NCBI GenBank assembly: GCA_965208615.1 | Contig: CBDBPB010000004.1 | Span: 352,001-416,000 of the forward strand | From: Spirochaetota bacterium | GTDB lineage: Bacteria; Spirochaetota; UBA6919; CBDBPB01 | Direction: 5' to 3' | Length of the DNA: 64,000 nucleotides | The notes under the pieces: generated by a model | Seen by the model: only the letters and a program-made list of their open reading frames with translations | The model's database searches: none | Told to the model about the DNA's origin: nothing | Shown here: positions 3,956 through 49,855 of the stretch, piece by piece | Layout: each line of letters opens with the position of its first letter | Position numbering within the stretch: the stretch's first letter is position 1 | Program-made: the position numbers and the translations under genes

Positions 3956-4706
3956 ATGATAAAAAAGGTTATTTTAGTAATGTTTGTTTTTTCTATAGGG
4001 TTCATAGGTTGTTTTGTTGATCATACCACCCCTAGGGTAACCAGGGTTGAATATGTTGAATATGAAGGTCCTCGTGATGGTTATTGGTACGATTATAGAG
4101 TAAAGGCTTATAAGCGTGTACCTACAAGATATAATAGAGGTTGGTATTATAGCTATGATAGGGGTAGATGGGTAAGAACTCCACCAAGATATAGAAAACA
4201 CTGGTATTATGATCATCATGATAGGCGATGGTATCGTTCTGATAGAAGAAAGGCTTTACGAAAAAAGGCTAGGAGAAGGGCTTTAGAGAGAAGAAGGGCA
4301 AGAAGAGAGGTACGTAGAGATTTTAGACGCGAAAAACGTAGAGATGAACGTAGAGATCTTAGACGTGAGAGGCGTAGAGATGAACGTAGAGATCTTAGAC
4401 GTGAGAGGCGTAGAGATGAACGTAGAGATCTTAGACGTGAGAGGCGTGAGGTACGTAAAGATCTTAGACGCGAAAAACGTAGAGATGAACGTAAAGATCT
4501 TAGACGCGAAAAACGTAGAGATGAACGTAAAGATTTTAGACGCGAAAAACGTAGAGATGAACGTAAAGATTTTAGACGCGAAAAAACGTAGAGATGAACG
4601 TAAAGATTTTAGACGCGAAAAACGTGAGAGACCTAAAGAAGATATTAGGCCTAAAAAAAGATATACACCAAAAGAGAGCAGAGATCCACGTAGGGAATGC
4701 ACGTAG
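3956..4706 (+). CDS. Arg-rich repeat lipoprotein (frameshift at the A6 run ~4582; corrected frame ends at 4706)
   Basis: Signal peptide with FIGC lipobox-like motif, AGGAGG RBS, Trp/Tyr/Arg-rich segment, then 12-aa DLRRE(K/R)RRDER(R/K) repeats. Confidence 0.7.
4312..4628 (+). repeat. 36-bp coding tandem repeat, about 8-9 units
   Basis: gatYttagacgYgaRaRRcgtagagatgaacgtaRa repeated. Confidence 0.9.
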
Positions 4707-4837
4707 AAAGGCACGTAACCAGTAAGTAGAAGGGCATAGAGTTAGTTATTATTTATTTTAGTCTAAATGGAGTTATATATAGTTTGTGCGTTTTATAAAG
4801 ATTAATTTATTTTTGTTACTCTATTTAGTATTAGCAT

Positions 4838-5371
4838 GTGATCAATGGAGAGCATAAGGAATATAGTTATTCAGAGATAGTTGAGATTTTTGCTATATCG
4901 ACATATTTAAAGGATAAGCAAGAGATTCAGGGGTTTATTGATGCTAAGTATGACTTAATAGACTATAAAAATCAAAAGAGATATAATAATGCTCTTAATG
5001 ACAAAATAAAGACTAAGGAAAAGTGGAATAGTTTTTTAAAGGATACCATTGAATATTTTATTGAGTTAAACAGAGAGTATACAATTAAATACTACACTCA
5101 AGAGGGTTATAATAAGAGGCTAAATCTTTTTAATGATAACTATACTTTTGATATTAAAAAGAAGAAACCTATCAAGTATTGGAAGGTATATTTTTTAATT
5201 AAAAAGGAATACAAGCCTATACCGCTAATCCAGGAGCAATATATAAATAATAAGCTTTTTCTTAAAGTTTATTATGATGAAAACCTTAAGAAGGTTAAAG
5301 AGGAGTATCACTTAAGATATCCCAAGTCCAATAAGGTTCTGTATTATTCTTATGGAGCAGTATTAAATTAG
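4838..5371 (+). CDS. Hypothetical protein (Tyr/Lys-rich)
   Basis: 177-aa ORF, no recognised motif. Confidence 0.5.
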   Translation: MINGEHKEYSYSEIVEIFAISTYLKDKQEIQGFIDAKYDLIDYKNQKRYNNALNDKIKTKEKWNSFLKDTIEYFIELNREYTIKYYTQEGYNKRLNLFNDNYTFDIKKKKPIKYWKVYFLIKKEYKPIPLIQEQYINNKLFLKVYYDENLKKVKEEYHLRYPKSNKVLYYSYGAVLN

Positions 5372-5467
5372 TATTTTTTAGGGAGTTATTTTCGATTATT
5401 TATAATTTTTGTATAGGTAAATATATAAAAAGACGTTTTATGATAACTTTCTTATTAAGAAGGTGTT

Positions 5468-6066
5468 GTTACTAATTTTTCTAGTAGTGTAGATCAAAAG
5501 TACTCTAAGATAATTTATCTTTTTTAAAACTTAAAAAATACAGATTATCAAGTTATAGAAAGTGTTCTGATGAGAGTAAAAAGGTTGTGAAAGAGGTTTT
5601 TGATAATGGGGATAAATATAAACATGTAGGTTTAGACTTTGGGTTAGGGGTGGTAAGCATATTTATTTTTTTGTTAATGTTAAGGGGATATTATTTAATA
5701 ATTCAGTTATCATTTTATGATAGAGTTATGCCGAGTCATACAAGGTAAAAAGTAAGACATATAACGTAAAGGCAAGTGAATTTTAGATTTCTTTGTAGAA
5801 CAAGAAAGTTAAGATCTTTATGGAAAAGTTATTTTCTTGTATCAAGCAGGTTATCCCTCTATGCTCTTTAAGTGCTGATTAAATGCCTCAGTAATGAACA
5901 CAAAATATCACTTTTTATGCAAGTAGTCATCACTACGAGAGCTATTAAGAATCCCTTACTGAGACTAAGAATTATAGACCTTTATTAAGTAATAACGGAT
6001 TTGCCCTTCCATAAAGACGTAGAGCGAATTATTCAAATATCGTATATTGACGTTATATGTAAAAGC
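5468..6066. repeat. Intergenic repeat family A, copy 1 (~600-bp unit; 304-bp core at 5757-6060)
   Basis: Aligns by eye with 36262-36860 over its full length and with ~30002-30490; core bounded by ACATATAACGT...ACGTTATATGT. Confidence 0.95.
5757..6060. ncRNA. Putative structured RNA / small-ORF locus (core of repeat A, copy 1)
   Basis: 11-bp closing inverted repeat; internal stems ACAAGAAA/TTTCTTGT, CTCAGTAA/TTACTGAG and GTAGT/ACTAC; compensatory changes between copies. Confidence 0.5.
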
Positions 6067-6427
6067 CGGTGGGAGACTCTAACGCTTTAACAGAATATCT
6101 AAGCTAACTCATATAAAAATAAGCTGTAACCCTTTACAAGGGTCCACAAAACCATTGATAAAAAAATAATTAATAAAACTAAAATGCTAATCAAACTTTA
6201 ATTTATTATTAAAATTATCGATTACTATAAAAATAGATTGCCTTGTTACAATATTTATTAATACTTATAAACTAGATTATTAATTTTATAATATAAATAC
6301 TTTAGAATTAATATTATAAAAAAAACTCTTAACAAAATAAAATCTAATTTATTAACTTTTTAATATGTATATATGAATTAAAAATATTTATATTAAACTA
6401 TTTTAACAAGTATGTACGGTTAGCCCT

Positions 6428-8653
6428 ATGACAAATAATAAAAATATCATTACTTATACAATTAATGAATTCGATATAAACAGTCTTAGAACCTCTCAAA
6501 GCCGAATACTCGAAGTGGCTGAAAACCTTGTTAAAGAAGGTAAATACGATTTGGGAGTAGTACTCTACTCTAAACTCCTGGATAAACATAATATAAAAAA
6601 AGTTAATAAAATTAAAATTGAAAAAAATATTAGTGATATTATGGTCTCTGTTAAACAAACTATTAAAACTGCAAAAAAATATATCCCCTCTAATGCAGAA
6701 ATAATAACAGATGAATCTGACGAATTTGACGAAATTGACCTATCCCTAACAAATGAAAATCAACAAAAAATAACAGATAATAATAAAAAAGAAAAATCTA
6801 AAAACTCAACATTAGCTGAACTACTTAAGTATGCTGTAGATAAAGCTAATACTCCAGAAGAACAATATGAGAAAAGTATACCCAATACAGAAAATAACCT
6901 GGATAATAAAGATATTAATGAAAAACTTCTTAATAAAATAGATAGCCTTAGTACTAGTACTAGCAAGCTAATTAATAAAACTATTAGCAAAATAAAACCC
7001 GAATATAAAAATACTACTACTGATAACGTGGATGTTGATAAACAAATTAAAAGTTTGACTAATGAACTCTCCGATAAAGAAAATCAGGGGGCTGAGTTAA
7101 GTGATTTTACCAGCAATATTGATGAAAGTAAGCTACTTTTAACTAATAATTTCTTTAATAAAATCAACGAAATAGAAAATAAAATTAATAATGACACTAT
7201 TAGTTACATAAATAATTCACTATTTCCTCCTAAGATAGCTACAGAAAAATATAGCGAGGTGCCTAAAGATAATAAATATGATGTTAAGCTGAATAAAGCG
7301 TTTTTTAGCAACATTAATAAGCTCTCTGATGATGCAAATAAAATTAAAGATAGCGTTGACCAGCTTAAAGACTCATTTATTAGTAAGATTAGTAACCATT
7401 TTTTTCCTCCACTTTCTAAAGACAGCATAAAAAAGAATATTAGCTCTAAACTAGAGGATGTCTCTATAGATAAAGACTACAAAGAAGATAAACAACTGGT
7501 AAATAAAAAAGAATATTTAGCTCCTTATGATCCTAACGAATTCGAAGAAAAAATTAATAACCTTATAAATAATCTGTCTGATAGCAATAATAAAAGTAAC
7601 ATCTCAGAAACCACTAATATATCCGAAAACTTGAATGATAAGGTTAATATAATAAAAGACCTTGTGGAAAACCTTAAAGATGAAAAAGATACTAAAGAAA
7701 TTAATGAAAAGAAAATTGATGACTTTAAAGAAACTGTTGATAAATTAAAATCCCGTTCTAAGGATGAAGATGCTCCTGAAGAACCTGTTTTAGAAGTCTT
7801 TAAAGCAAATGAAGAAATCATTATAAAAAAACATAAAGAAAAAATAAAACCTGAAACTTACTCTGATAACTATCATAAAGTACTCTACTTCCCCGATAAT
7901 GAAGCTTATAAAAAAAACGATATAGATAATTTAGGCTTCTACTCCCTAAATGATATTCTAAGTGAAGATTATAGTAATGCTGAAAAGTTAAACGATTCTG
8001 GTGAGCTTATAGAAAAAGTTAAAAAAGTAGTTAGTAAAAATATTGATTTACAACGTACTCCATATCCACACAACGTAGAAAATGACTACAAAAATAAAAA
8101 TGGCTTCTTAGAGCATATAAATAAACCACTTGATACTGAAAAAACCATCAATATTGATAATGATAATTTAAAAAATCACGAAGCACCTATCGATAACGAA
8201 TATAATACGAATAGGTATGCAGATAAAGAAAATAAAGATAGGTTAAATGAACCTGAAAAACAAACTAAACCAAAACCTGAATATTATAATAGGTCTCTAA
8301 AAAACCCTGTAATACTTTCTTATGATTTTAGATCCCTCTTTAAAACAAAGTTTTACCTGAAATACAAAGATATATTGAATGAAGCGGCTATGCTGGTAGC
8401 AAATAAAAAATTGGATGAGGCTTTGGAGTATTATTACGTTATTCTAGACCAAAATATACCCTCTGCCCTTAAATTAATGATTAAGCAAAATATTGAAGAT
8501 ATTGAACAAACTATTACAAATACTTTTCGCTATTCCGATACTATTGTAAAACTTAAAGAATCCGGTGAAGTATCCAGACTAAAAGTGGTAGACGAAATAG
8601 AATATGGTGAAGATAAAGTTAGTTCCAAAGAAATCGTTTTTACAGAAGAATAA
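6428..8653 (+). CDS. Hypothetical large N/D/K/E-rich protein with TPR-like helical motifs at both ends
   Basis: 741-aa ORF; similar helices at the N-terminus (AENLVKEGKYDLGVVLY) and C-terminus (AAMLVANKKLDEALEYY). Confidence 0.7.
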   Translation: MTNNKNIITYTINEFDINSLRTSQSRILEVAENLVKEGKYDLGVVLYSKLLDKHNIKKVNKIKIEKNISDIMVSVKQTIKTAKKYIPSNAEIITDESDEFDEIDLSLTNENQQKITDNNKKEKSKNSTLAELLKYAVDKANTPEEQYEKSIPNTENNLDNKDINEKLLNKIDSLSTSTSKLINKTISKIKPEYKNTTTDNVDVDKQIKSLTNELSDKENQGAELSDFTSNIDESKLLLTNNFFNKINEIENKINNDTISYINNSLFPPKIATEKYSEVPKDNKYDVKLNKAFFSNINKLSDDANKIKDSVDQLKDSFISKISNHFFPPLSKDSIKKNISSKLEDVSIDKDYKEDKQLVNKKEYLAPYDPNEFEEKINNLINNLSDSNNKSNISETTNISENLNDKVNIIKDLVENLKDEKDTKEINEKKIDDFKETVDKLKSRSKDEDAPEEPVLEVFKANEEIIIKKHKEKIKPETYSDNYHKVLYFPDNEAYKKNDIDNLGFYSLNDILSEDYSNAEKLNDSGELIEKVKKVVSKNIDLQRTPYPHNVENDYKNKNGFLEHINKPLDTEKTINIDNDNLKNHEAPIDNEYNTNRYADKENKDRLNEPEKQTKPKPEYYNRSLKNPVILSYDFRSLFKTKFYLKYKDILNEAAMLVANKKLDEALEYYYVILDQNIPSALKLMIKQNIEDIEQTITNTFRYSDTIVKLKESGEVSRLKVVDEIEYGEDKVSSKEIVFTEE

Positions 8654-8654
8654 A

Positions 8655-9497: not shown

Positions 9498-9626
9498 TAT
9501 GGCACTCTTATGCGAAAAGTTATATATTATTTAACAGTTATACATAAGCAGGATTACAAAAGCTAATATAGTTAGTAAAAAGAGTATAAATAATCCCTTT
9601 CAATTTTTAAATTTATATACGACTTA

Positions 9627-9800: not shown

Positions 9801-9881
9801 AATTAACCTCTATCTATTTTGTATTATTATAGATTTTAGTAATAAAATTAAAGGTTTTCTATTATGTAGTTAACTATTATA

Positions 9882-20658: not shown

Positions 20659-21740
20659 TTTAGACTATAACTTAAATGCTTATTATTGTTAAGATAAACA
20701 GTTACCTTTGCTTTTCCTAATACTCTAATCCATTCAACTATCTTTTCTCCTATATTTTTATATCCCTCAAAAACAGTTATTTTATTGCTATTATCCTTAA
20801 CCTCTATTTTGACCATAATCTTTTTATCCAGTTTAGTTAGTTTGCTGTTATCAGAGTCATGATATGACATAGGAACAATAAACTTTATCATTTTGTAATT
20901 ATTTAGTGCATTTTTTATGTCATTGTTAACCACATGCAAGGTAATACTTTCGCCCTTAAAAAGCTTAGTACCTGGATTAATACTTTGTTTAGTAATTTTA
21001 CCAAAGTTTTTATGGTCGCCTTTAACCGTGATAATTTTTACAAATATATTTTTATTTTTTAGTATTTTAGTAACTGGCTCAATATATTTGCCTATATAAC
21101 TAGGAAGCTTAATATAGTTATTTTTTCCTAAGCTAACCTTAAAGTTAATGTATGTATATTTATTAATTAGAGTTTTTTCTTTTGGATGCTGATCAATAAT
21201 AGTTCCTTTAGGAAACTCGTTATGATTTACAAAAATAGCATTATCTAATATTAACAAGTTTATTGCTTGTGGATCAGTTTTATTATTTTGCAGAGTATTA
21301 TTTATTTTATTGAGTTTTTTTTTATTTAGTAATTTATGAGAGTCAACTATTTTTTTATTATGGAGAGACTTTTGCACTTGAACAAAGTTTTTGCCAATAA
21401 AGTTGGGAACTTTTAAACTTTTATCCCCTATTGAAACCTTGAGTACAATATCTCTATTATCTCTAATGGGAATTCCAAAAGTAGGAGTTTGGCTTATAAC
21501 TTTATATTTAATAAATTCTTCATTTAATATAGGTATAACTTTTATATTTATATTTGTATTTAAGGTTTTATTAATTTTTTCGATTTCGTAATAAACATCC
21601 AAGATATTCATTCCTACAAAGTTAGGGACTTGTGCTTTTTTATCTTCTTTTTGAATACGGCTTATAGTATACAAAGCCACCGAACTTACTATAATAACTA
21701 CTGCTACAAGGACTAGGATGTATCCTAGATATTGATTTTA
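20655..21740 (-). CDS. PASTA-domain protein; N-terminal TM anchor lies upstream of the annotated start
   Basis: VPNFVG/VPNFIG/LPSYIG...Q.P PASTA repeats; in-frame hydrophobic stretch YILVLVAVVIIVSS upstream of 21680; true start uncertain (possible frameshift). Confidence 0.8.
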
Positions 21741-21848
21741 AGATCAAGGGACTAACCTCTTTTTTTTTTATATATTCAAGCTGTATAGCCTATTAAAAGT
21801 TGTTCAAGCAGGTTTTAGTAAAAGAGTTATGAAATTGTATTTAACAAC

Positions 21849-22060
21849 TTTAGTTTGAGTTTTTTAAGACATTATGAGTATAATTAAATTTTTGATAATA
21901 ATCAATAATAGTTTCTTAATTTAGGTTAAGAAATGTTTAGTTAGCGAGGTGAGGGGTTTATGAGCAAGGCTTCCAGTAAATATAGCAAAAAGGTATTTTG
22001 TTATAATTTAGTTTTAGTTTTTTAAGGCATTATGAATATAGTTAAATTTTTGATAATAAT
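21849..22060. repeat. 54-bp imperfect direct repeat (21849-21902 and 22007-22060)
   Basis: tttagtttKagttttttaagRcattatgaRtataRttaaatttttgataataat occurs twice. Confidence 0.85.
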
Positions 22061-22061
22061 T

Positions 22062-22200
22062 GTTACTAATTATTTTAGTTTTTAGATAAAGAATTATTCT
22101 AAGACAATTGCTAAATAGATTTTATTTGTATTTTTTAAGTTTTAGAAATATAAGTTAGCTTAAAATATTTTTGATCTACACTATTAGGGCAATTAGTAAC
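22062..22200. mobile_element. MITE-like repeat family B (139 bp), TIR GTTACTAATT/AATTAGTAAC
   Basis: 10-bp perfect terminal IR; homologous to 28254-28383 and 29098-29230. Confidence 0.6.
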
Positions 22201-22315
22201 CACTAATATACAATAACAAATACTTATTTTTTTTTATTAAATAATAATGAATATTTATAAAGTTAGAGTGTTACTATAAAGTAATAAAATAGATAAAGGC
22301 TTGAAATTATGATAT

Positions 22316-27768: not shown

Positions 27769-28253
27769 AATCGACCCCTCTATCTTTTAGTAATTTTCAT
27801 TAATTATATTCTTTAATTAATAAAGCATTAGTTATAACTGTTATTTTCTTAAACACTTATAACTTAGTATATTAATTTAAACTAACATATTATTTTATTA
27901 GTTTAGATTTTCAATTTGTTAAAGTTAAAAATATCAACTTATTAAGTTGATAAAAAACTTTATATAAGTTGTAAATATAACTAATTATTTTTAAGGTTAG
28001 CAAAAATAACCTATTAATTTAAAATTAGTTTTATTTAATTCACAACAAAAAATATAATAAGTAATCTTTTATCGTATACAGAAGAAGTTATTTTTTAATA
28101 AAATTGGAAAAAAACTATTTTAAGTTAGGCATTAGAGTGTCAACTCATTGTTACAGGGGCATTACAGCAGATATAAAAAAAAGCATTTTATGATAATTTA
28201 CTAATTTAGGCGTGGATGTATTATTTAACAATTCACTTATTCTGTTGTGAGGT

Positions 28254-28383
28254 GTTAGTAATTATTTTAGCTTTTAGATAAGTTATTCTAAGACGACTGC
28301 TAGCCAGGTTTTATCTATATTTTTTAAGTTTTAGAAATATAAGTTAGCTTAGTTTAATCTGCACTATTAGAACAACTAGTAAC
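28254..28383. mobile_element. MITE-like repeat family B copy
   Basis: Homologous to 22062-22200; ends GTTAGTAATT...ACTAGTAAC. Confidence 0.6.
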
Positions 28384-28528
28384 AGATATTTTTGTCATTT
28401 TGGACACTATAAATACTATTTTATGGGAGTTAGATTATTAAAGATTGTTAGGTATTATCTATTTTTTTTGAGGATTATAAGTCGTTTTTGTATTCAGCAC
28501 TACCACTGCACGTCCATTTTTACCGATA

Positions 28529-28849
28529 CTACTTCAGTATATCCTTTACTACTAGCATCAGTATTCCAATTAGTATACCTGTTACCATGGCAACCATTAT
28601 TTTTATCATACCTTTTAGTTCTGATATATCTTGCCTGACACTCGATATATCATGTTTAAGCTCTTCTTTAATGACTGATATTTTATTGTCGAGCTTGTTC
28701 TCTATTGCTTTTAACTCTACTCTTAGTCTTGATTCAACTCCAGTTATCTCATTTCTAAGCTTCTCCACTTTAATATCAGTAATCTCAACTTCATGGATCT
28801 GGCTAGTAACTTCTCTTTTGATCTCTTGCTTTAACTCTTCACTTATCAT
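28529..28849 (-). CDS. Bdr/DUF1640 (CCDC90)-like coiled-coil protein with C-terminal TM anchor, copy 1
   Basis: Short head, coiled-coil stalk, hydrophobic C-terminus MIKIMVAMVTGILIGILMLVV. Confidence 0.7.
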   Translation of the reverse strand: MISEELKQEIKREVTSQIHEVEITDIKVEKLRNEITGVESRLRVELKAIENKLDNKISVIKEELKHDISSVRQDISELKGMIKIMVAMVTGILIGILMLVVKDILK

Positions 28850-28851
28850 CT

Positions 28852-29019
28852 TTACCTCTTCTGAAGATGATTGTATATGTACTCTTCAACTGGTAATTTT
28901 ACTAAAAGCTTTTGTGATATGTTTATGCCTTCTTTTTTTAGTTTGTTTATGAAATAAATGAGGAGTTCTCGGGTCGAGGGTTCGATTGCAATATTTGCTC
29001 TATTTTCTGTTTTTTCCAT
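28852..29019 (-). CDS. Putative ribbon-helix-helix DNA-binding protein (55 aa)
   Basis: Manual translation MEKTENRANIAIEPSTRELLIYFINKLKKEGINISQKLLVKLPVEEYIYNHLQKR fits the beta-helix-G-x-S-helix RHH pattern; stop lies 2 nt before the next ATG. Confidence 0.55.
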   Translation of the reverse strand: MEKTENRANIAIEPSTRELLIYFINKLKKEGINISQKLLVKLPVEEYIYNHLQKR

Positions 29020-29097
29020 TTTTTAAACTTGAGAAACTTTATTTCTTTCATTTATTTTTAAATATACTCTTTTTCTTTATGTTTGTCAATATTTTGT

Positions 29098-29230
29098 GTT
29101 ACTAATTATTCTATCTTTTAGGTAAGGAATTACTTTAAGACAATTGCTAAATAGATTTTATCTATATTTTTTAAGTTTTAGAAATATAAGTTAGCTTAGT
29201 TTAATCTGCACTATTAGAACAACTAGTAAC
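29098..29230. mobile_element. MITE-like repeat family B copy
   Basis: GTTACTAATT...ACTAGTAAC, homologous to 22062-22200. Confidence 0.6.
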
Positions 29231-29375
29231 AGATATTTTTGTCATTTTGGACACTATAAATACTATTTTATGGGAGTTAGATTATTAAAGATTGTTAGGT
29301 ATTATCTATTTTTTTTGAGGATTATAAGTCGTTTTTGTATTCAGCACTACCACTGCACGTCCATTTTTACCGATA

Positions 29376-29663
29376 CTACTTCAGTATATCCTTTACTACT
29401 AGCATCAGTATTCCAATTAGTATACCAGTTACCATGGCAACCATTATTTTTATCATACCTTTTAATTCTGATATATCTTGCCTGACACTTGATATATCCT
29501 GCTTTAACTCAAGCTTTACGTCCTTTATCTCATTCCTTAGTTCAAGCTTTACGTCCTTTATCTCATTTCTAAGCTTCTCCACTTTAATATCAGTAATCTC
29601 AACTTCATGGATCTGGTTAGTAACTTCTCTTTTGATCTCTTGCTTTAACTCTTCACTTATCAT
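29376..29663 (-). CDS. Bdr/DUF1640-like coiled-coil TM protein, copy 2
   Basis: Near-identical head and anchor to copy 1; stalk has the 11-aa repeat LRNEIKDVKLE twice. Confidence 0.7.
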   Translation of the reverse strand: MISEELKQEIKREVTNQIHEVEITDIKVEKLRNEIKDVKLELRNEIKDVKLELKQDISSVRQDISELKGMIKIMVAMVTGILIGILMLVVKDILK

Positions 29664-29665
29664 CT

Positions 29666-29758
29666 TTACCTCTTCTGAAGATGATTGTGTATGTACTCTT
29701 CAACTGGTAATTTTACTAAAAGCTTTTGTGATATGTTTATGCCTTCTTTTTTTAGTTT
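29666..29758 (-). pseudogene. 5'-truncated copy of the RHH-like ORF
   Basis: KLKKEGINISQKLLVKLPVEEYTHNHLQKR is retained; homology ends at 29758 and an in-frame TAA lies just upstream. Confidence 0.55.
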
Positions 29759-30001
29759 AGAGTGTTAAGCTCTAATAGGCCAACGCATATAAAGCTATAT
29801 CATTTAAAAATAAATCTACTATAAGGCAATCAATCTCAGGGAAAAGTACAACTAAAAAAAGTACTTAAACCTATTTCAAAGGGGATAGCTATATTTTAAT
29901 AAGAGGTTTTAATATTCCCAGTTGGCATACCTATACATAATATGTGATAATTTAGTATAACGGACACTTCATCAAGTTTAGGTTGTTGAAAATAGACATG
30001 C

Positions 30002-30540
30002 ATATAAACTTGTACGCTCAGACCTTGATTCAGGCGAGTAAGTATATTTATTTTTTGTTAAGGCTAATGTTAGTATAGCTTTTCTTTTTTATGATAATTT
30101 AGGTTATTTAGAGTGATATTATTTAGTGATTTAGTTATCATCTTATGACAAAGTTATGACGAGGGATACAAGGCAAAAGGAAGACATATAACGTAAAGGC
30201 AGATGTATTTTAGATTTCTTTGTGGAACAGGAAAGTTAAGATATTCATGGAAAAGTTATTTTCCTGTGTCAAGCAGGTTATCCCTTTATGCTCTTTAAGT
30301 GCTGTTTAAATACTTTAGTAATTAACACAAAATATCACTTTTTATGCAAGTAGTCATCATTACGAGAGCTATTAAGAATCCCTTACTGGAACTAAGAATT
30401 ATAGACCTTTATTAAGTGTTAACGGATTTGCAGTCCCATAAAGGCGTAGAGCGGATTATTTAAATATTACATGTTGACGTTATATGTAAAACTTCAAAAA
30501 AGTATGCTTAACCCTCTATAAATAAATAACAACTATAAAA
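30002..30540. repeat. Intergenic repeat family A, copy 2 (core 30184-30487)
   Basis: Core is ungapped relative to copies 1 and 3; flanks are more diverged and carry an insertion. Confidence 0.95.
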
Positions 30541-30543
30541 AGT

Positions 30544-30926
30544 AAACTGCCAGATCCTCTTTACAATAATACACCTAAAATAAATAGTAATACCTAAATC
30601 TTAATCGAATTACACCAGTATATAGCAAAATTAACTGCCAACCTGCCAGATCCTCTTTACAATAATACACCTAAAATAAATAGTAATACCTAAACCTTAA
30701 TCGAATTACACCAGTATATAGCAAAATTAACTGCCAACCTGCCAGATCCTCTTTACAATAATACACCTAAAATAAATAGTAATACCTAAACCTTAATCGA
30801 ATTACACCAGTATATAGCAAAATTAACTGCCAAACTGCCAGATCCTCTTTACAATAATACACCTAAAATAAATAGTAATACCTAAACCTTAATCGAATTA
30901 CACCTATATATACTAAAACTAACTAC
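30544..30926. repeat. Non-coding tandem repeat, 4 x 96 bp
   Basis: CTGCCAGATCC starts at 30547, 30643, 30739 and 30835; stop codons in all six frames. Confidence 0.95.
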
Positions 30927-31321
30927 TGAAAATTATACTCCAATTATTAATGCCAAATAAACTATATCTATAACCTTAACTATAATTATATGTTAACTAC
31001 TTAATCTAATAAATAGCCTATAACATATTACTATGAACCTTTTAAAAGCCCATCCATTGACTTTAAACAATTTTTTTGTTATCCTTGTAAACAAAAGTAA
31101 ATTATAACCTAAATCATATTTTAAAAAAACTGTTATCTAAATATATGCATACTTAAAAATGGAAATGGGCTTCTTTAATATAAATCTTCTAATTAAAAAG
31201 TATACTATGAAATAAGGTTATAAACCAATATTAAAAATTATAACTAAATAACTAATAATAAATGTTCAAAGATTTAACCCTTAAACAATATATTAAAAAA
31301 AATGTATAATGTGAGACGCCT

Positions 31322-32850
31322 ATGAGTAAAGACTTGCCAAGCTCTATAGATATACAAAAAGATATAAGTAATTACTTATCCGATAAATACGGCGGACAGG
31401 TAGTAGTTAGTAATCCAGATGTAGAAGGTGGACAAGAAGGGGTTAGTTCAAAAAATACCAAAAAAAATGCAAACTTTAGCCTGAAACCCCTTGAACTAGA
31501 AAAATACCTTAAAGAATATGTAATACAACAAAATGAGGCAATCGATGTTCTGGCTACTAAAATATGTACCCACTTTAATCGTATGGTCTATGAAAAAACT
31601 CTATCTAGTAAAGAAAAAATTATAGGTAATGTAAAAAGTAATATCCTAATGGTAGGTCCAACAGGTGTTGGTAAAACTTATATCACTAAACTAATTGCCA
31701 TGAACTTAGGTGTGCCATTTGTAAAAGGTGATGCCACTAAGTTTACTGAAACTGGATACGTCGGCGGAGATGTCGAAGACCTGATTAGAGAACTAGTCCG
31801 TGAGGCAGATGGAGACATTACTTTAGCCGAATATGGTATTATATATCTCGACGAAATAGATAAAATTGCCTCCTCTAATAATCACTACGGACCTGATGTA
31901 TCCCGTACAGGAGTACAGAGAAACCTCCTGAAAGTAATGGAGGATACTGATGTTGAATTAAAAAGTCCTATGGATATGGCATCACAAATGGAAGCCGTTA
32001 TGCAGGCTCAAAAAACTGGAAAGGTAGAACGAAAGAAAATTAATACTAAAAATATATTATTCGTAATGAGCGGTGCTTTTCAGGATATATCAGATATAAT
32101 AAAAAAACGCCTTAATAGACAACCTCTAGGATTTAGCCCGACTAATAACAATAAAGAAAATACTCATAATGAAAACCTACTAAAATATGTAAATAGTAAT
32201 GATCTCATAGAATACGGTTTTGAGTCCGAATTTGTAGGAAGACTCCCTGTCATAACTATACTAGACGATCTTAACGTAGAAAGCTTATACAAAATACTAA
32301 ATAATCCCAAAAGCTCTGTTATACTAGTGAAAAAAAAAGAGACTTTGCCGCATATGGCATAAAAATAAACTTTGAATCTGATGCCCTTAAAAAAATCGCT
32401 GGGCTTGCATTTAAAGAAAAAACTGGTGCAAGGGGTTTTAGTCAGTATTTGTGAAAAAGTACTAATTAAATTTGAAAAGTATTTACCATCAACATCTATC
32501 AAAAATCTCGTTGTCAGTAAAAGGCTTAGTAGACTCTCCTAATGATGTATTAGCAGAAATACTAATAGAAGATGCCATTAATAAAATTAAAGAAGAATTT
32601 ACTACTAAACATGGTATAACTCTTAACTTTACTGAAAACGCTATTAACCTAATTTTAGATAAATCCAAAAAACAAAATATAAACTCTTTTGATTTTTGCT
32701 ACTCAATGCTAACAGACTACGAATACGGACTTAAGTTAATAGGAGAAAGTAGCTTTACTGTTACAGAAGATGTTGTTAACAATCATAGGAAGTTCCTTGG
32801 ATAACTTAATTAAAAAAAGCCTATGAAAAAAGTCAGGCTAATAAAAGTTA
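31322..32850 (+). CDS. ClpX-like AAA+ ATPase lacking the zinc finger, frameshift-split
   Basis: [43 protein letters not shown]; frameshift at the A-run ~32330; TGARGL in the shifted frame. Confidence 0.85.
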
Positions 32851-34699: not shown

Positions 34700-35730
34700 T
34701 TACCCAACTTACAATAAGTATAGTCTGACTCAACCATAAGCTTAACAAGCTCTTTAAATTTCACTTTAGGCTCCCATCCCAAAAGCTTTTTAGCCTTAGT
34801 ATAATCACCTATTAGACAGTCCACCTCTGCAGGCCTAAAATAATTAGGATCAATTTTAATAATGGTTTTATTAGTTTTTCTATCCACACCTTTCTCATGA
34901 ATGCCTTTTCCATGCCATGCTATATCAAAATCAAGGTGACGGCAAACCTCTTCAACAAACTCTCTTACGCTATGAGTCTCACCAGTAGCCAAAACGAAAT
35001 CATCAGCACTATCATGTTGTAATATTTTCCACATACCATAAACATAATCCATAGCATAGCCCCAATCCCTTTTTGCATCAAGGTTTCCAAGGTGTAAGCA
35101 GTTATCAATACCTAGTTTTATACGGCTTAAGCCCATAGTAATTTTTTTAGTAACAAACGTCCTTCCACGCCTTGGGGACTCATGATTAAAAAGTATGCCA
35201 TTACTAGCAAAGATATTATAGCTTTCACGGTAATTTTTAGTAATATAAAACGAGAAAGCTTTTGCACAGGCATAAGGACTCCTTGGATTAAAAGGGGTAT
35301 TTTCTTTTTGAGGAGTCTCTAAAACTTCACCAAACAACTCCGACGACGATGCCTGATAGTATTTTGTTTTCATCCCTGTATCTTTAATGGCATCCAATAA
35401 TCTCAAAGCTCCTATTCCAACAACGTCAGAGGTATATTCAGGCAGTTTAAAGCTTACTGCAACATGGGATTGAGCCGCTAAATTATATATTTCATCAGGA
35501 TTTATACGTTCTAACAATCTGGATAGGTTTGAGCTATCCGTTAAGTCAGAATAGTGTAGAAATAGTGTTCTACCATTAATATGGGGATCTTGATAAAGGT
35601 GATCTATCCTATAAGTGTTAAAGTTAGAAGCAGGCCTAACAGTACCATGTACCTCATAGTCTTTTTTCAGCAGGAACTCTGCTAAATAAGAGCCATCTTG
35701 ACCAGTGATACCAGTAATAAGCGCTTTCAT
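34696..35730 (-). CDS. gmd: GDP-mannose 4,6-dehydratase
   Basis: [37 protein letters not shown]. Confidence 0.97.
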
Positions 35731-35743
35731 AGGTTATATAATA

Positions 35744-36067
35744 TTATAAATAAGCTTTTATTTTATCTTCAAAATGAGCTTTTGGCAAGGCACCTACTAC
35801 CTTATCCACGATTTCTCCATTTTTATAAAAGTAAAGGGTAGGTATACTATTTATGCCATAAGTTCCAGGAGTTTTAGGATTTTCATCTACATTTAGCTTA
35901 GTAATTTTAATTTTATCCCCGTACTCATTAGCCAGTTCTTCCAGAATAGGGGCAATCATCCTACACGGGGCACACCATTCAGCCCAAAAGTCAACTATAG
36001 TCAGCTTATCGGATTTTATTACTTCATTTTCGAAAGCATCATCTGAAATTTTAACAATATTTCCCAT
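35744..36067 (-). CDS. trxA: Thioredoxin
   Basis: DFWAEWCAPC, SIPT. Confidence 0.96.
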   Translation of the reverse strand: MGNIVKISDDAFENEVIKSDKLTIVDFWAEWCAPCRMIAPILEELANEYGDKIKITKLNVDENPKTPGTYGINSIPTLYFYKNGEIVDKVVGALPKAHFEDKIKAYL

Positions 36068-36261
36068 CTATACACCGCCTAATATTTAATTAAATAATTT
36101 ATCTTAGTTATTATACTACATAAAAATATACTGTAACAGTTTGAAAAAGTATTAAAAATACGTATTATAGTCAACTTTTTTAATAAAAATTGTGAACAAA
36201 ATAAAAAAAATAGTGAATACCTTTCCAAAGGAGGTATTAAGAAATGTTTTAGTAGTTTATT

Positions 36262-36905
36262 GTTACTAATTGTTTTAGTAGTGTAGCTCAAAAGTATTAT
36301 AAGGTAGTTTATCTATCTAAAGCTTAAAAAATAGAGATTATGAAGTTATAGAAAGTGTTTTGATGAAAGTTAAAAAGGCAGTGAAAGAGGTTTTTGACAA
36401 TGGGGATAGATATAAACATGTAGGTTTAGGTTTTGAGTCAGACGAGTAAGTATATTTATTTTTTTTTGTTAATGTTAAGGGGATATTATTTAATAATTCA
36501 GTTATCATTTTATGATAGATTTATGACAAAGTCTACAAGGTAAAAAGCAAGACATATAACGTAAAGGCAGATAGATTTTAGATTTCTTTATGGAACAGGA
36601 AAGTTAAGATATTTATGGAAAAGCTATTTTCTTGTCTCAAGCAGGTTATCCCGCTATGCTTTTTAAGTACTGCTTAAATACTTCAGCAATGAACACAAAA
36701 TATCACTTTTTATGCAAGTAGTCATCACTACGAGAGCTATTAAGAATCCCTTACTGAGACTAAGAATTATAGACCTTTATTAAGTGATAACGGATTTACC
36801 TTTCCACAAAGGCTTAGAGCAGATTATTTAAATATCACATATTGACTTTATATGTAAAGCCTCAAAAAGTATAGCTAATCCTATATGAGTAAATAACAAA
36901 TAAAA
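36262..36905. repeat. Intergenic repeat family A, copy 3 (core 36552-36855)
   Basis: Collinear with copy 1 from 5468; 3' flank shared with copy 2; one mismatch in the right IR (ACTTTATATGT). Confidence 0.95.
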
Positions 36906-37179
36906 AAATAATCCACTAAAACCTTCACTAACAAAATGCCTGATAAAACGTTTGTTAACGGTTTGTTATAAAGGCGTTCTATCAGTATACATTAAAATTC
37001 ATATACCAAATCAGTATTAAAAAAACTTGATGACAATATCCAATAGAATATTTGCTAACAAATTACAACAAAACCTTTTTTACCCTATCAAAGCTTATTA
37101 TTAAAAATTACTTTTAGTTTTAACTATAATTCTCCGACAAATCAAATTAATAATACAATAAGCAGTTCTAGGAGGAATA

Positions 37180-38034
37180 ATGGTAAGGGGTTTATATACC
37201 GGCGTTAGCGGAATGTTAGGTCAGTGGCATAAAATGAATGTTGTATCAAATAATCTGGCTAATATCAATACCACCGGCTTTAAACGTAATGAAACCATCT
37301 TTAAAGCATTCCCAGAAATGCTGATTAGACGCATAAACGATAACGGAGTAGTAAAAATACCAATAGGCTCATACGATGTTGCCCCTATTGTAGGTAAACT
37401 CGGTACTGGAGTTGAGTTAAACGAAATTATTACCAGACATGATCAAGGCTCAATAAGACAAACCAATAATGACTTTGACCTTGCCTTCTCTGGCAAAGGA
37501 TATTTCGTCATCAAAACCGATAACGGTGAAAAATATACAAGAAATGGAAGCTTTATAATAGATAGAAATGGCTTTTTAACCACCAAAGAAGGATTTAAAG
37601 TACAAGGCGAAAAAGGCGATATAAGAATTAAAACTAATAACTTTAAAGTTAATGAATTTGGAGAAATAATAGAAAATGCCGATTACCCATCCAAAGACCT
37701 AGGATTATTCGTTGATAAAAACGATAATGAGTGGTTATTTCCTCAAGTAGTCGATAAACTGAAAATAGTAAACTTCTACGACGAAAGACAACTAAATAAA
37801 CAGGGTAATAGCTATTATACTGCAACTCGTCATTCCGGTGAAGCAGAAATAAAAGAAATTGGCGAAGGTAGACCAAATGTATTACAAGGATTTATTGAAG
37901 GCTCTAACGTAAACCCTGTCAATGAAATGGTAAGAATGATCGAAGTGCAGAGAAGCTATGAAGCAAATCAAAAGGTCGTTACCGCTAATGATCAACTCTT
38001 AGGTAAAGCTGTAAACGAACTTCCAAGAATATAA
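37180..38034 (+). CDS. flgF: Flagellar basal-body rod protein FlgF (FlgG-like)
   Basis: SNNLANINTTGFK, YTRNGSF, EGSNVNPVNEMVRMI. Confidence 0.85.
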   Translation: MVRGLYTGVSGMLGQWHKMNVVSNNLANINTTGFKRNETIFKAFPEMLIRRINDNGVVKIPIGSYDVAPIVGKLGTGVELNEIITRHDQGSIRQTNNDFDLAFSGKGYFVIKTDNGEKYTRNGSFIIDRNGFLTTKEGFKVQGEKGDIRIKTNNFKVNEFGEIIENADYPSKDLGLFVDKNDNEWLFPQVVDKLKIVNFYDERQLNKQGNSYYTATRHSGEAEIKEIGEGRPNVLQGFIEGSNVNPVNEMVRMIEVQRSYEANQKVVTANDQLLGKAVNELPRI

Positions 38035-38055
38035 TAAAACGGAGGCTTAATAATT

Positions 38056-38859
38056 ATGATAAGATCACTATGGACTTCTGCCAGCGGTATGACAGCTCAA
38101 CAGCTTAATATCGATACTATATCAAATAACCTGTCAAACGTGAATACCACTGGATATAAAAAAGTAAGAGCCGATTTTGAAGACTTGATTTATCAAAATC
38201 TACGCCTGCCTGGTACACCCTCATCCATTAATACCGAGTATCCAACTGGTGTGCAAGTAGGCCTTGGTGTGAAACCTGCCTCTACTCAAAAATTATTCTC
38301 TCAGGGTACACCACAAAGAACCGAAAATAAACTCGATATTGCTATCTTCGGCGAGGGATTTGTTAAAGTAAGACTAAATGATGGTACTTTTGCATATACA
38401 AGAAATGGCTCCCTAAAAATAGATAGTAATGGTGATATAGTAACCTCTGATGGCTATTATATAGAGCCTCCACTAAGATTTGATTTGGACGTTTTACAGA
38501 ATAGCATTAATATATCAGAAAATGGAATGGTTAGCTATAAAACTGGTAGTATGCCTCCTGATGGACAAGCTAAAATAGCCGGAGAGCTTAAACTATATAG
38601 ATTCGTTAATCCAGCTGGACTAAAAAGTATTGGTAAAAACCTACTAAAAGAGTCTAGTGCAAGTGGACAAGAATTTGAAGGAATACCCGGTGAACAAGGC
38701 TTTGGTAAAGTACAACAGGGTTTTCTTGAGATGTCAAATGTGCAGATAGTAGAAGAAATGGTAAACATGATAGTTGCTCAAAGAGCCTATGAGTTCAATT
38801 CAAAGGCTATTCAAACGTCGGATTCTATGCTAGGTACTGCTGTTGCACTAAAGCGATAG
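38056..38859 (+). CDS. flgG: Flagellar distal rod protein FlgG
   Basis: MIRSLWTSASGM, FEDLIYQ, QVGLGV, EMSNVQIVEEMV..IVAQRAYE. Confidence 0.95.
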   Translation: MIRSLWTSASGMTAQQLNIDTISNNLSNVNTTGYKKVRADFEDLIYQNLRLPGTPSSINTEYPTGVQVGLGVKPASTQKLFSQGTPQRTENKLDIAIFGEGFVKVRLNDGTFAYTRNGSLKIDSNGDIVTSDGYYIEPPLRFDLDVLQNSINISENGMVSYKTGSMPPDGQAKIAGELKLYRFVNPAGLKSIGKNLLKESSASGQEFEGIPGEQGFGKVQQGFLEMSNVQIVEEMVNMIVAQRAYEFNSKAIQTSDSMLGTAVALKR

Positions 38860-44721: not shown

Positions 44722-44823
44722 TTATTCTAATAAACAAGGTTTATAGCAAATATAAAAAAAGTACTTGCTTATTAACAGTATTCTGTTTTTATTTAACAAC
44801 TAATTTATTAAGGATATAATATT

Positions 44824-47079: not shown

Positions 47080-47143
47080 ACAAAAAAGCTTTCTTATGTT
47101 GTTTAGACTTTTTCTATAATTCTTTAATATGCTCTAATCTAAC

Positions 47144-47182
47144 TAGTTAACTTAACCATGCTTAACATGATTAAGTTAACTA
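47144..47182. terminator. Hairpin between convergent maeB and LRR gene
   Basis: TAGTTAACTTAA/TTAAGTTAACTA 12-bp arms plus inner CATG/CATG. Confidence 0.65.
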
Positions 47183-47205
47183 AACAAAAATATTAACTTT
47201 GTTCG

Positions 47206-47838
47206 TTATCTCTGTATGTCAACTATACTTAACCCTTTACCTGTGCGATAGGTATTTAGCTGCGTTTCATAACCTGCGGTAACTTGAGTGTTTTTAGCTT
47301 TAATGTCCTTCATGGCTGGTAAGTCTTTTAATTGTTCTAGTCCATCATTGCCAATGCTGGTATTATCAATATTAATATATTTGAGTTTCTGTAGATTTTT
47401 TAAATATTTTAATCCATCTCCAGCTACATTAGTTTGTGGAATATAAATGTCGGTTAATTCACTTAAGTTAGCCAAGTGAGATAGTCCTTCATCACTTAGA
47501 TTACTATTGCCAATGACAATCATTGTTAATTTCGTTAAATTCGATATATATTGTAATCCTTGATTAGTCATTCTAGGACTATTTTTAATTTCAAGATTTA
47601 TTAAGCTAGTAAGGCTCTGTAGATATTTTAACTCATTGTCATCAGTATCCTCAAAGTAGGCAAAAGTTAGAGTACTTGGATCGCTAGTATTAATACCTTT
47701 TTTCTTTAAAAACTCTATAACCTCAGCATTAGTAAAAGCATACCCTCCGGTTAGGCTCTCAGCAGACCCTTTGTCAGAGTCTCCACATGATAGTAAAAAT
47801 AAAAAAATAATTAGCAAGCTATAAACTCTTATTTTCAT
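47206..47838 (-). CDS. Leucine-rich repeat lipoprotein
   Basis: LLSC lipobox; GLxxLxxLxxLxxI repeats of ~24 aa. Confidence 0.85.
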   Translation of the reverse strand: MKIRVYSLLIIFLFLLSCGDSDKGSAESLTGGYAFTNAEVIEFLKKKGINTSDPSTLTFAYFEDTDDNELKYLQSLTSLINLEIKNSPRMTNQGLQYISNLTKLTMIVIGNSNLSDEGLSHLANLSELTDIYIPQTNVAGDGLKYLKNLQKLKYINIDNTSIGNDGLEQLKDLPAMKDIKAKNTQVTAGYETQLNTYRTGKGLSIVDIQR

Positions 47839-48058
47839 ACTCTTTTCCTATTAAAAAGTTAATCTAACTATATACTATAATCCACTATAAATAACAACAC
47901 CCTATAACTTAATCTATTTCATGATAACTCAAATAAAGTTAACTATACAGTTTATAGCTGTATATAAAATATGCTGACACTTTATAAGCTCAATCTATCC
48001 AAAAAAAAAAATATATATTATCTTTATCACTAGTTTAAAGCTACGGAGAAAATATTTA

Positions 48059-49855
48059 ATGATAAATCCAAAATATATTAGAAACTTCTCTATAATTGCC
48101 CATATAGATCATGGCAAATCAACTCTAGCTGACCGCCTCCTAGAAATAACTAATACTACTGATGATCGTAATAAAAAAAATCAAATACTAGATACTATGG
48201 ATATCGAAAGAGAACGCGGTATTACTATTAAATCTCAGGCGGCTACACTACTATACAATGCCAATGATAATAATACATATCACCTAAACCTCATTGATAC
48301 CCCAGGACATGTTGACTTCTCCTATGAAGTATCTAGGTCGCTGGCCGCCTGTGAAGGTGTTCTACTGGTAATTGATGCATCCCAAGGTGTAGAAGCTCAA
48401 ACTTTAGCTAATATGTACCAGGCTCTAGAACACGATTTAGAAATAATACCCGTTATTAATAAAATCGACTTGCCTTCTGCTAATGTTGATGCAGTTAAAA
48501 AACAAATTAAAGAAGACTTAGGTCTAAACCCCGATATCGCCGTACCCATAAGTGCAAAAATGGGCCAAAATATAAAAGCCGTCCTAGAAAGTATTATTAA
48601 ATATTGTCCAGCACCAAATGGCTCTATAGACAATCCAGCTAAAGCCCTCATATTTGATGCCTCTTTTGACTATTATCGTGGTGTAGTGGTTAGCCTAAGG
48701 CTCTTTGACGGCGTGATTAAGGTTAAAGACTCTATAAAACTATTCCAAAGTAATAGAGAGTATAAAGTTGATGAACTCGGTATATTTAAACCTAAATACC
48801 TTCCAAAAAGCAGTTTAAGCGTTGGTGAGGTAGGCTATCTTATAGCAAATATAAGAGAACTCTCCGATACAAAAATTGGCGATACCATTACTACCACTAA
48901 TAACCCATGTCATAAAGCTTATCCAGGCTACAAAGAAGTTAAACCAATGGTATTTGCCGGTATATACCCTATAGAAAATGATGACTACGAAAACCTTAAA
49001 ACTGCCATCGAAAAACTTAAACTAAATGATGCATCCTTAGTCTTTGAACCAGATAGCTCTCTTGCATTAGGATTTGGCTTTAGATGCGGCTTTTTAGGCC
49101 TGCTACACATGGAAATCATCCAGGAAAGACTAGAACGTGAGTTTAACCTTAGCATTATTACTACAGTCCCAAGTGTGGAGTATAAAGTCCATTTTACCAA
49201 TGGTGATACTAAAATCATCGATAATCCTACTAACTTCCCTGAACCTCAATATATCACTAAAACCGAAGAACCCTTTGTTTTAGTTAATATTATTGTTCCT
49301 GAAAAGTATGTTGGAAACGTAATACAACTGTGCCATGAAAAACGAGCTATACAAAAAAATATGCAGTTCTTGGGTGATAAAAGAATAGAAATCGACTTTG
49401 ATATACCCTTAGCAGAAATTATTTATGATTTTCATGATAAATTAAAAAGTGTATCCAGAGGATATGCCTCCTACGATTATCACTTTATCGACTACAGAGA
49501 AAGCAAACTAGTTAAAGTGGATATCTTGGTCAACAAAAAACAAGTAGATGCACTATCCCAAATCATATTTAAAGAACATGCTCAGACTAAAGGACGAGGT
49601 ATTATCGAAAAACTGAAAAACGTTATCCCAAGACATATGTTCCAGGTACCTTTACAGGCCAGCATTGGTGGTAATGTCATTGCCAGAGAGAATATTAGAG
49701 CTCTTAGAAAAGATGTTACCGCAAAGTGCTATGGAGGCGATATAAGTAGAAAACGTAAACTTATAGAAAAACAAAAAGAAGGTAAAAAACGTATGAGACA
49801 AGTGGGAGACGTCGATATACCCCAAGAGGCCTTTATGTCAATACTAAAAATTTAG
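48059..49855 (+). CDS. lepA: Elongation factor 4
   Basis: [41 protein letters not shown]. Confidence 0.98.

Follow-up and report, generated by a model that had tools for sequence, protein, structure and literature searches.

A strand-asymmetric base bias centred on dispersed intergenic repeats in the genome of a Spirochaetota bacterium

Compositional skew in bacteria is usually taken as a readout of replication at the scale of the chromosome and of transcription at the scale of the gene. Here we describe a skew of shorter range on both sides of a family of dispersed intergenic repeats, the family A and B (A/B) elements, in the genome of a Spirochaetota bacterium. Our analysis follows up a first-pass annotation of 64,000 nucleotides of that genome (hereafter the window, bases 352001-416000 of contig C4), which had described GC-skew reversals from G-rich to C-rich at intergenic regions carrying these repeats and had taken them to suggest recurrent strand-asymmetric mutation. 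The genome is a 2.46-Mb draft in 9 contigs with ~31% G+C and a completeness score of 99.4%. Among the genomes searched, neither its GTDB family nor its genus had a second member, and the best identity of the window's lepA protein was 61%, to proteins of Spirochaetota and Leptospirales bins.

Among described systems, the closest in base spectrum is the GC and AT skew of replication, in which the leading strand is G+T-rich and the sign switches at the terminus. The A/B loci share its silent-site spectrum and its G-to-C polarity, but their effect ranges over ~1.5-2 kb rather than a replichore, occurs at at least 52 sites rather than one and is independent of fork direction. Bidirectional resection in yeast is described as leaving mutated C's to the left and mutated G's to the right on the top strand, in kilobase-scale tracts (PMC6786661), and the A/B flanks are similarly short of top-strand C on the left and of G on the right; the yeast clusters, as described there, are single events under an added deaminase or mutagen, whereas here there is a fixed compositional footprint at many homologous sites of a wild bacterial genome, and a break is something we infer. 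Break-proximal mutation hotspots in E. coli are reported to peak within ~2 kb, on both sides and independently of which way replication or transcription runs (PMC3607216), all of which is like the pattern at A/B loci, but what was followed there was the rate of mutation, under stress, at an engineered I-SceI cut, and the abstract reports no strand-asymmetric spectrum. A polarity described for fungal genes (PMC3315797) resembles a general 5'-to-3' rise of coding-strand skew in the present genome. This general rise affects silent sites and lends every intergenic region a slight G-to-C polarity, but it is some ten times weaker than the A/B effect, which also crosses gene boundaries irrespective of orientation.

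As for the elements themselves, the known dispersed intergenic repeats of bacteria include REP (repetitive extragenic palindromic) and BIME (bacterial interspersed mosaic element) sequences, Correia elements and MITE-type (miniature inverted-repeat transposable element) sequences. The A/B elements resemble these in being non-coding and strictly intergenic, in occurring in tens of copies, in having inverted arms near their ends and in existing in short and long forms. They differ in having a conserved core of 385 nt and locus-specific arrays of modules, in their homology, which extends past the right arm, and in that no target duplication was seen (no matching flank words among the 26 arm pairs listed). 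A literature search, outside whose coverage subscription journals lay, found no report of local skew reversal or flank skew at bacterial intergenic repeats.

Across the genome, family A is represented by 42 core copies that reach 200 nt or more, every one of them intergenic, and when the short family B and module-only matches are included the element family is carried by 65 of 2182 intergenic regions. Columns of the core are 87-98% conserved over 34 copies, and copies are about 4-17% diverged from their consensus. A 22-nt inverted arm motif near both ends of the element is found at 149 sites, versus 26 in the reversed genome, and 102 of the sites lie within A/B regions. Contig C4, which makes up 25% of the genome, carries 18 of the 42 core copies. 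The sequence traits suggest a lineage-specific composite intergenic repeat with MITE-like features, its status as a MITE being itself putative. In general make-up the element is G/T-rich on its 5' side and C/A-rich just 3' of the core. Of the 42 core copies, 38 were aligned in element orientation (four were dropped, their flanks being cut by a contig end). Relative to the core start, pooled skew between -400 and +100 is +0.19 to +0.49, with G exceeding C in 29-38 of 38 copies (36-38 of 38 at -100 to +100), and is -0.40 at +400 to +500, where G exceeds C in a single copy of the 38. The consensus has 22 G and 2 C in its 5' part and 0 G and 6 C in its tail.

The skew of the flanking genes was measured on a gene set from a simple caller of our own, a non-standard program (longest open reading frames, codon log-odds score, greedy choice), which gave 2191 genes covering 86% of the genome. 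Third-position skew was regressed on strand-signed regional skew (baseline 0.096 + 2.04 sR) and residuals were read on the + strand; the regional term R is a running value over +/-15 genes, and the strand effect, T = 0.112, comes from 374 adjacent opposite-strand gene pairs. Strand and R together explain 71% of the gene-to-gene variance. For each intergenic region, D is the paired right-versus-left flank difference of residual third-position skew, a negative D being a G-to-C switch. With the window excluded and neighbours merged, 52 A/B loci have a mean D of -0.320 (bootstrap 95% confidence interval -0.397 to -0.245) and 46 of the 52 are negative, a sign that holds in 7 of 7 element-bearing contigs; control intergenic regions longer than 300 nt give D = -0.028, with 123 of 235 negative. 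Regions that share other repeats have D = -0.035 (n=28), and hence the effect is specific to the A/B family.

The same switch is found by gene. The first gene to the left of an A/B element has a mean residual of +0.132 and the first to the right -0.167, with a paired difference of -0.305 (39 of 47 pairs negative where both genes have at least 300 nt, p=7.6e-8), against -0.008 and 105 of 200 negative for first-gene pairs around repeat-free intergenic regions longer than 300 nt. An ordinary least squares model over 1722 genes gave +0.208 for genes with a repeat region at their 3' end (t=5.2, n=32) and -0.127 for those with one at their 5' end (t=-4.4, n=61). At codon positions 1 and 2 there was no effect, either in this model or in a test of co-directional pairs, and in orientation-matched resampling the observed mean was reached in 0 of 20000 draws. 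A model-free comparison leads to the same result: in co-directional pairs of genes of at least 150 amino acids split by an A/B element, upstream minus downstream third-position skew is +0.360 and positive in 17 of 19 pairs, versus -0.034 and 28 of 66 in co-directional control pairs. The share of G-ending Lys/Glu/Gln codons in the split pairs differs by +0.214, again in 17 of 19. If skew were purely a matter of gene orientation, no switch would be expected between same-strand neighbours, and this is not what is found at A/B loci. A strand-asymmetric bias centred on A/B repeats is thus supported after control for gene strand.

The first-pass annotation had proposed to test whether switch points co-locate with A/B repeats once gene strand is controlled, and genome-wide they do. 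Usable flanks were available for 856 intergenic regions of 100 nt or more, 61 of which carry A/B. When regions are ranked by the strength of their G-to-C switch, the first 20 include 10 with A/B, the first 40 include 15 and the first 80 include 21 (1.4, 2.9 and 5.7 expected); the 80 strongest C-to-G switches include 1. G+C at third codon positions (GC3) is normal in A/B-flanking genes (0.253 vs 0.248). Module-only regions, which lack the core, behave like the rest (D = -0.334, 16 of 20 negative). The effect is strongest in copies that lack tandem arrays (-0.416, 19 of 20) and weakest in those that have them (-0.205, 16 of 21), an order to be expected if what counts is the distance from some point within the element. 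When copies are read in element orientation, the larger shift lies downstream of the core (-0.245 and -0.27, versus +0.15 and +0.10 upstream).

How far does the effect reach? In 500-bp bins counted from the intergenic edge it is +0.20, +0.12 and +0.06 on the left and then ~0, and -0.20, -0.14 and -0.105 on the right and then ~0; the profile is alike where regional skew is positive (n=28) and where it is negative (n=37). Second and later genes score 0.120 at 400-800 nt and 0.108 at 800-1300 nt, where first neighbours score 0.171 and 0.114, and the score declines to 0.059 between 1.3 and 2 kb, 0.034 between 2 and 3 kb and 0.002 between 3 and 5 kb. For later genes that lie opposite in strand to the first neighbour, the score is still 0.102 (p=3e-4). 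The effect depends on distance and not on gene rank, and it crosses gene boundaries in either orientation. Its range of ~1.5-2 kb per side is well short of the 6-20 kb that had been proposed from the window.

The base spectrum was followed in measures of codon choice. In genes pointing to the element, the share of G-ending Lys/Glu/Gln codons is raised by 0.130 (controls -0.019, p=3.6e-6), while the C-ending share of two-fold pyrimidine codons is lowered by 0.044 and C at fourfold sites by 0.027; in genes pointing away from the element these shares shift in the reverse sense. The shifts are proportional to the leading/lagging slopes of the same measures. Third-position AT skew flips oppositely to GC skew (left -0.074, right +0.070), and the ratio of the GC to the AT effect equals that of the replication bias. 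T rises where C falls, as seen in third-position AT skew and in the C-ending and fourfold-C shares; the changes are unpolarised, and the G-ending shift lies above what C-to-T change predicts. The strand running 5' to 3' towards the element is thus shown to be enriched in G+T and depleted in C+A at silent sites for ~1.5-2 kb on each side, regardless of gene or fork direction. Within element copies, C>T makes up 11 and G>A 38 of 539 substitution events, counts that come from few G/C sites and an unreliable flank alignment.

Weaker trends in silent-site skew run through the genome as a whole. In long genes, coding-strand third-position GC skew rises from 5' to 3' by ~0.12 per kb. A rise with distance from the start of the transcription unit comes about mainly via G-ending Lys/Glu/Gln codons (rho 0.21). 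Around the 22 tRNA-bearing regions of the genome, a weak G-to-C switch falls mostly downstream of the tRNA.

What could produce a footprint of this kind? We consider that there may be two layers, an ordinary see-saw driven by gene strand and, superimposed on it, a recurrent exposure of single strands centred on A/B elements, and we hold this account to be about as apt to be right as wrong, the exposure being something that we infer from one genome. Somewhat more tentatively, the lineage-specific elements of this deep-branching spirochaete may mark ~60 fragile sites that are recurrently broken and resected or that stall the replisome, leaving a symmetric, leading-strand-like footprint of ~1.5-2 kb per side. 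The strands running towards the element would recurrently be exposed as single-stranded DNA and would gather cytosine deamination together with other changes of the leading-strand type. By one route, a double-strand break in the element would be followed by 5'-to-3' resection on both sides and by repair from the sister chromosome. By another, a replisome pausing at the element would leave lagging-strand template exposed in its rear and, once uncoupled, leading-strand template exposed in front; from the established geometry of replication, this would expose the same strands for either fork direction. The present evidence does not separate the break route from the pausing route. The top strand loses C to the left and G to the right of the centre over kilobase tracts, which is the polarity of bidirectional resection, and the polarity that the first-pass annotation had predicted for resected 3' single strands matches the observed G-to-C switch. 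Tandem amplification has affected different sub-modules of the element at different loci, the periods being ~74, 96, 145, 201, 263 and 318 nt (examples are C4:91-92 kb, C4:131-132 kb, C1:41.8-42.5 kb, C1:406.7-407.8 kb, C7:333.9-334.9 kb, C2:80.9-82.1 kb and window 30427-31002); the variety of periods points to frequent local slippage or unequal exchange, and such amplification fits loci at which slippage or unequal repair is frequent.

Several observations weigh against recurrent exposure at the elements. Within long first-neighbour genes, the excess over controls looks roughly flat, without the decay expected over 1.5 kb (n=20, n=14). The shift in G-ending Lys/Glu/Gln codons exceeds the prediction of pure C-to-T deamination of one strand, and the size of the effect does not increase with copy divergence (rho 0.09, n=32). 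One of the three family A copies in the window, copy 2, is without flank effect (D=+0.09), and 10 of the 20 strongest switches genome-wide are at regions without repeats. There is no obvious breaking agent: Y1_Tnp, DDE_Tnp_1, rve and the TnpB zinc-ribbon had no match in the 99.4%-complete draft, although these are four families only and insertion sequences may be unassembled. As single-stranded DNA the element folds no better than shuffles, in both the short form (153-nt B element, z -0.99) and the long form (686-nt copy 3, z +1.5), and on these folds we rejected fragility through hairpins or cruciforms. A search of 20 relatives did not turn up the element, and the effect is accordingly known from one genome and one lineage. 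Among public sequencing runs, a single one was found to contain the stretch, as assembled contigs, and no RNA data set containing it was listed. Finally, every gene-based number given here rests on our own simple gene caller and not on a standard program.

The most serious rival is a transcription-phase effect, in which a promoter-proximal skew common to all genes here, with a non-template strand that is relatively C-rich close to starts and G-rich in the direction of ends, would be amplified by strong sense and antisense transcripts running outward from the element into both flanks. We think this unlikely, although a good deal speaks for it. In control genes, coding-strand third-position skew rises from the 5' end (-0.055, +0.007, +0.067) and reads +0.069, +0.032 and -0.048 from the 3' end, skew climbs weakly as the start of the transcription unit becomes more distant (rho 0.114), and the same polarity has been described for fungal genes (PMC3315797). 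Of 42 elements, 16 lie between divergent genes, where they are enriched (versus 262 of 2140), and 2 between convergent genes, where they are rare; the stronger side is the one downstream of the core, and tRNA-bearing intergenic regions show a weak effect of the same sign (D=-0.110, 14 of 22 negative). However, the largest shift is in genes pointing towards the element (the +0.208 of the regression), which would demand strong antisense transcription; the ribosomal-protein operon, whose transcription is presumably high, shows positive residuals; at other long intergenic regions that bear promoters the effect is about one tenth as large; and a scan for consensus promoters found 5 sites, against a shuffle mean of 8.2. 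Causation may also run in reverse, with the elements inserting or surviving at pre-existing G-to-C and T-to-A switches which they would mark and not make. Strong switches without repeats (half of the top 20; window 47839-48058) are what such an account would lead one to expect, as is an effect size unrelated to copy divergence, and copies ~4-17% from consensus look young for so large a silent-site shift. We nevertheless find it improbable, for it leaves the origin of the switches unexplained, it needs very strict targeting of a diffuse 3-kb feature to give 46 of 52 loci of one sign and 1 repeat among the top 80 C-to-G switches, and element-specific 9-mers are not commoner in repeat-free switch regions (p=0.36).

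The remaining explanations appeal to known sources of skew or to the assembly. That there is nothing beyond gene orientation, promoter distance and gene-specific codon usage (expression level, amino-acid make-up) draws on the fact that strand accounts for most of the raw pattern, on an overdispersion of third-position skew everywhere (residual standard deviation between genes 0.111, versus 0.059 from sampling, and a standard deviation of z of 1.8 across all intergenic regions) and on a skew peak at window 3956-4591 that is due to amino-acid make-up. Such an explanation is nonetheless very improbable and, as a full account, is contradicted by same-strand pairs that still differ in 17 of 19 cases, by the 0 of 20000 matched draws and by the 46 of 52 loci; moreover the effect is present in measures of codon choice that are independent of amino acids, it crosses gene boundaries and holds in opposite-strand neighbours, and ribosomal-protein genes are without the C-ending signature. 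Expression-linked codon selection was itself rejected, given the positive residuals and low C-ending use of the ribosomal-protein operon and an effect that crosses genes of either strand. Dispersed repeats are also natural points of recombination and assembly error, the draft has 9 contigs, and the part of C4 around the window has weak regional skew, all of which could fit inversions, transfers or misassemblies that end in repeats and join segments of different skew history. Junctions, however, should give both polarities equally, and an inverted gene should deviate by -2R, yet the loci are G-to-C in 46 of 52 cases, with 1 of the top 80 C-to-G switches carrying a repeat, and the effect is alike for R>0 and R<0; with a signal that decays in 1.5-2 kb rather than filling a segment and with normal GC3 in the flanks, we give junction artefacts very little credence. 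Foreign DNA was rejected as well, since flank GC3 is normal and the proteins of flanking genes that end at repeat regions are unrelated apart from two small clusters. Least probable of all, to the point of being scarcely credible, is that the loci are true replication landmarks, whether extra origins or fork-meeting sites. Their base spectrum does equal the leading/lagging spectrum and their polarity is that of a terminus, but the multiple initiation events that the first-pass annotation had entertained are excluded by polarity, because an origin gives a C-to-G switch and 46 of 52 loci go from G to C. The sign of a terminus would last for tens to hundreds of kb (as in C6 near 155 kb) and not for 1.5-2 kb, there are at least 52 loci, and skew stays raised even on the side from which forks approach the element in any case, a result that a change in fork direction could not produce.

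Should recurrent single-strand exposure at A/B elements prove to be the correct reading, these loci would form the first natural, genome-encoded map of such sites in a bacterium that can be read from composition alone, and bacterial skew would have a third, site-centred component of kilobase scale tied to one repeat family. Dispersed repeats could then affect, in their vicinity, the codon usage and silent-site composition of adjacent genes, a single genome sequence would suffice to locate natural hotspots of breakage or fork stalling, and any use of skew to infer origins, rearrangements, foreign DNA or codon adaptation would need a local correction. The ~60 homologous sites are also a concrete set for studying the origin of strand-asymmetric mutation.

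Other properties of the element can be given briefly. Rfam gave no match to the elements at the gathering score or at E<=1, there was no tRNA match, and only 2-3 compensatory pairs were seen over 34 element copies; lacking an Rfam match and with covariation so weak, a structured RNA was rejected as the identity of the element. One exact 34-nt pattern of the element had 0 matches in metagenome contigs and 0 in genome contigs, the latter being a set that may omit the source genome.

Within the window, the first-pass annotation had read a sawtooth of 6-20 kb as a departure from the skew of a single-origin chromosome. We find that the kilobase-scale see-saw in raw skew is ordinary: the coding strand is G-rich, and skew tracks gene orientation over a weak, single-signed replication skew. 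Between the GC skew of 1-kb bins and their net coding strand, the correlation is r=0.635 for the 64 bins of the window and r=0.703 for the 2452 bins of the whole genome, so that orientation explains R2 0.40 of the window's skew. Coding-strand GC skew is +0.159 overall, and +0.36, -0.09 and +0.14 at codon positions 1, 2 and 3. Strand-corrected R over the window genes runs from -0.008 to -0.080, a single sign, the sole exception being the last listed gene, which extends past the window end (R=+0.002); other contigs hold one strand-corrected sign for hundreds of kb. Turning points in the window, taken as extremes of cumulative G-C at a threshold of 60, lie less than 600 bp from a gene-strand switch of matching type in 7 of 10 cases and at 661-961 bp in 2 more; the sole one without a nearby strand switch is at 5850, in family A copy 1. 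The raw turning point at copy 3 (36131) is a minimum, C to G, and is opposite to the polarity given in the annotation. Taken together, the observation made in that annotation is partly confirmed and its interpretation partly supported.

Single genes contribute to the raw pattern. Only 2 window genes have |z|>2.5, namely 3956-4591 (z=3.1) and a small open reading frame (ORF) at 29376 (z=-2.6). The former has a second-position skew of +0.64, which makes its z a protein effect, and the strongly positive raw skew at 3500-5500 is largely due to its composition. It encodes a 211-amino-acid protein made of 36-nt (12-amino-acid) tandem repeats rich in Arg, Glu and Asp, without a Pfam match, and alone yields the highest raw GC skew of the window, +0.39.

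Strand-corrected skew shows a clean terminus-type change in C6 near 155 kb, from +0.16 to -0.16, and no contig contains a matching origin-type switch. The 170-450 kb portion of C4, window included, has an unusually weak regional replication skew, with |R| at most 0.09. The only DnaA-domain match, at G000:C3:35740-36223 and thus outside the window, is in two overlapping pieces with one in-frame TGA, for which a frameshift, a sequencing error or recoding are possible; strand-corrected skew keeps its sign there, with R about -0.07 on either side.

A clear case in the window is family A copy 1 (5466..6180, + strand), in the intergenic region 5372-6427 between two + genes. It was delimited by repeat families D4, D9 and D11-13 and by a left inverted-repeat arm at 5466-5487, and consists of G/T-rich 5' modules, a core at 5680-6064 and, with an uncertain right limit, a C/A-rich tail. 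The left flank (4172..5371) has a third-position G excess (residual +0.44) and the right flank (6428..7627), in a gene on the same strand, a C excess (-0.42), giving D=-0.86 (z=-5.6) after strand and regional correction. Family A copy 3 (36260..36934, +; inverted arms 36260-36281 and 36913-36934, core 36475-36858) lies between divergent genes in the intergenic region 36068-37179, where D=-0.56 (z=-4.2); the residual third-position skew is +0.18 in its left flank (34868..36067, genes on the - strand) and -0.38 in its right flank (37180..38379, flgF and flgG). The counts on single 60-nt lines beside these copies that had called attention to the reversals are exact (16 G/2 C at 5581-5640 and 6 G/11 C at 6121-6180; 17 G/3 C at 36361-36420 and 5 G/12 C at 36901-36960), and the two left-hand lines are indeed homologous and not independent, both belonging to family D11. 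As local events, however, the four contrasts do not stand, for all four lines fall inside the two intergenic regions just named and, with a skew pattern shared across the 38 aligned copies, they represent inherited element sequence. The contrast in codon endings between same-strand genes was correctly seen: third-position skew is +0.45 in 4838-5371, -0.32 in 6428-8653, -0.24 in the gene at 31322, -0.53 in flgF, -0.48 in lepA, +0.27 in maeB and +0.18 in pyc.

Of the further flips suggested, two hold up after correction and two do not. Near 22130 there is a short-form family B element of ~143 nt (22060..22202, +; inverted repeat I1, family D8, with arms at 22060-22081 and 22181-22202), and the intergenic site 21681-22315 has flank residuals of +0.27 on the left and -0.44 on the right (D=-0.71, z=-4.0). 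The flip at ~47850 corresponds to a switch upstream of lepA (47839..48058; flanks +0.27 and -0.57, z=-5.9) that carries neither an A/B repeat nor the arm motif. It ranks among the strongest strand-corrected G-to-C switches of the genome and shows that A/B repeats are not the sole source of such switches. The flip at ~30300 falls in the effect-less copy 2 (29980..31002, +; families D1, D4 and D9), which consists of a module, a core at 30115-30491 (C4:382115-382491) and a C-rich array of 96-nt units at 30427-31002, and the fall in raw skew to -0.31 at 30501-31500 overlies this array. That at ~58330 lies at two divergent genes and falls short of significance once strand is corrected for (D=-0.17, z=-1.1).

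Two B-type short elements lie on the - strand in a 0.85-kb duplication. The one at 28250..28385 (arm 28364-28385; families D5, D7 and D8) has D=-0.36 (z=-1.8), and the flanks of the second duplicate copy, at 29097..29232 (arm 29211-29232; family D8), are too short for scoring. Beside them, the tandem duplication contains a small ORF family (window 28283-28944 and 29130-29758, and also G000:C1:279495-279728), whose three paralogues of 77-106 amino acids share their N-terminus and have third-position skews of +0.47 to +0.61. Gene identities confirmed in the window are FliG, flgF, flgG (for flgF and flgG, Pfam flagellar rod domains were matched), maeB, lepA, pyc and a ClpA/B-type ATPase. At window 2196-2442, within the - strand gene 2181-3155, at least 8 tandem units of 21 nt in coding DNA give a protein of 7-amino-acid repeats.

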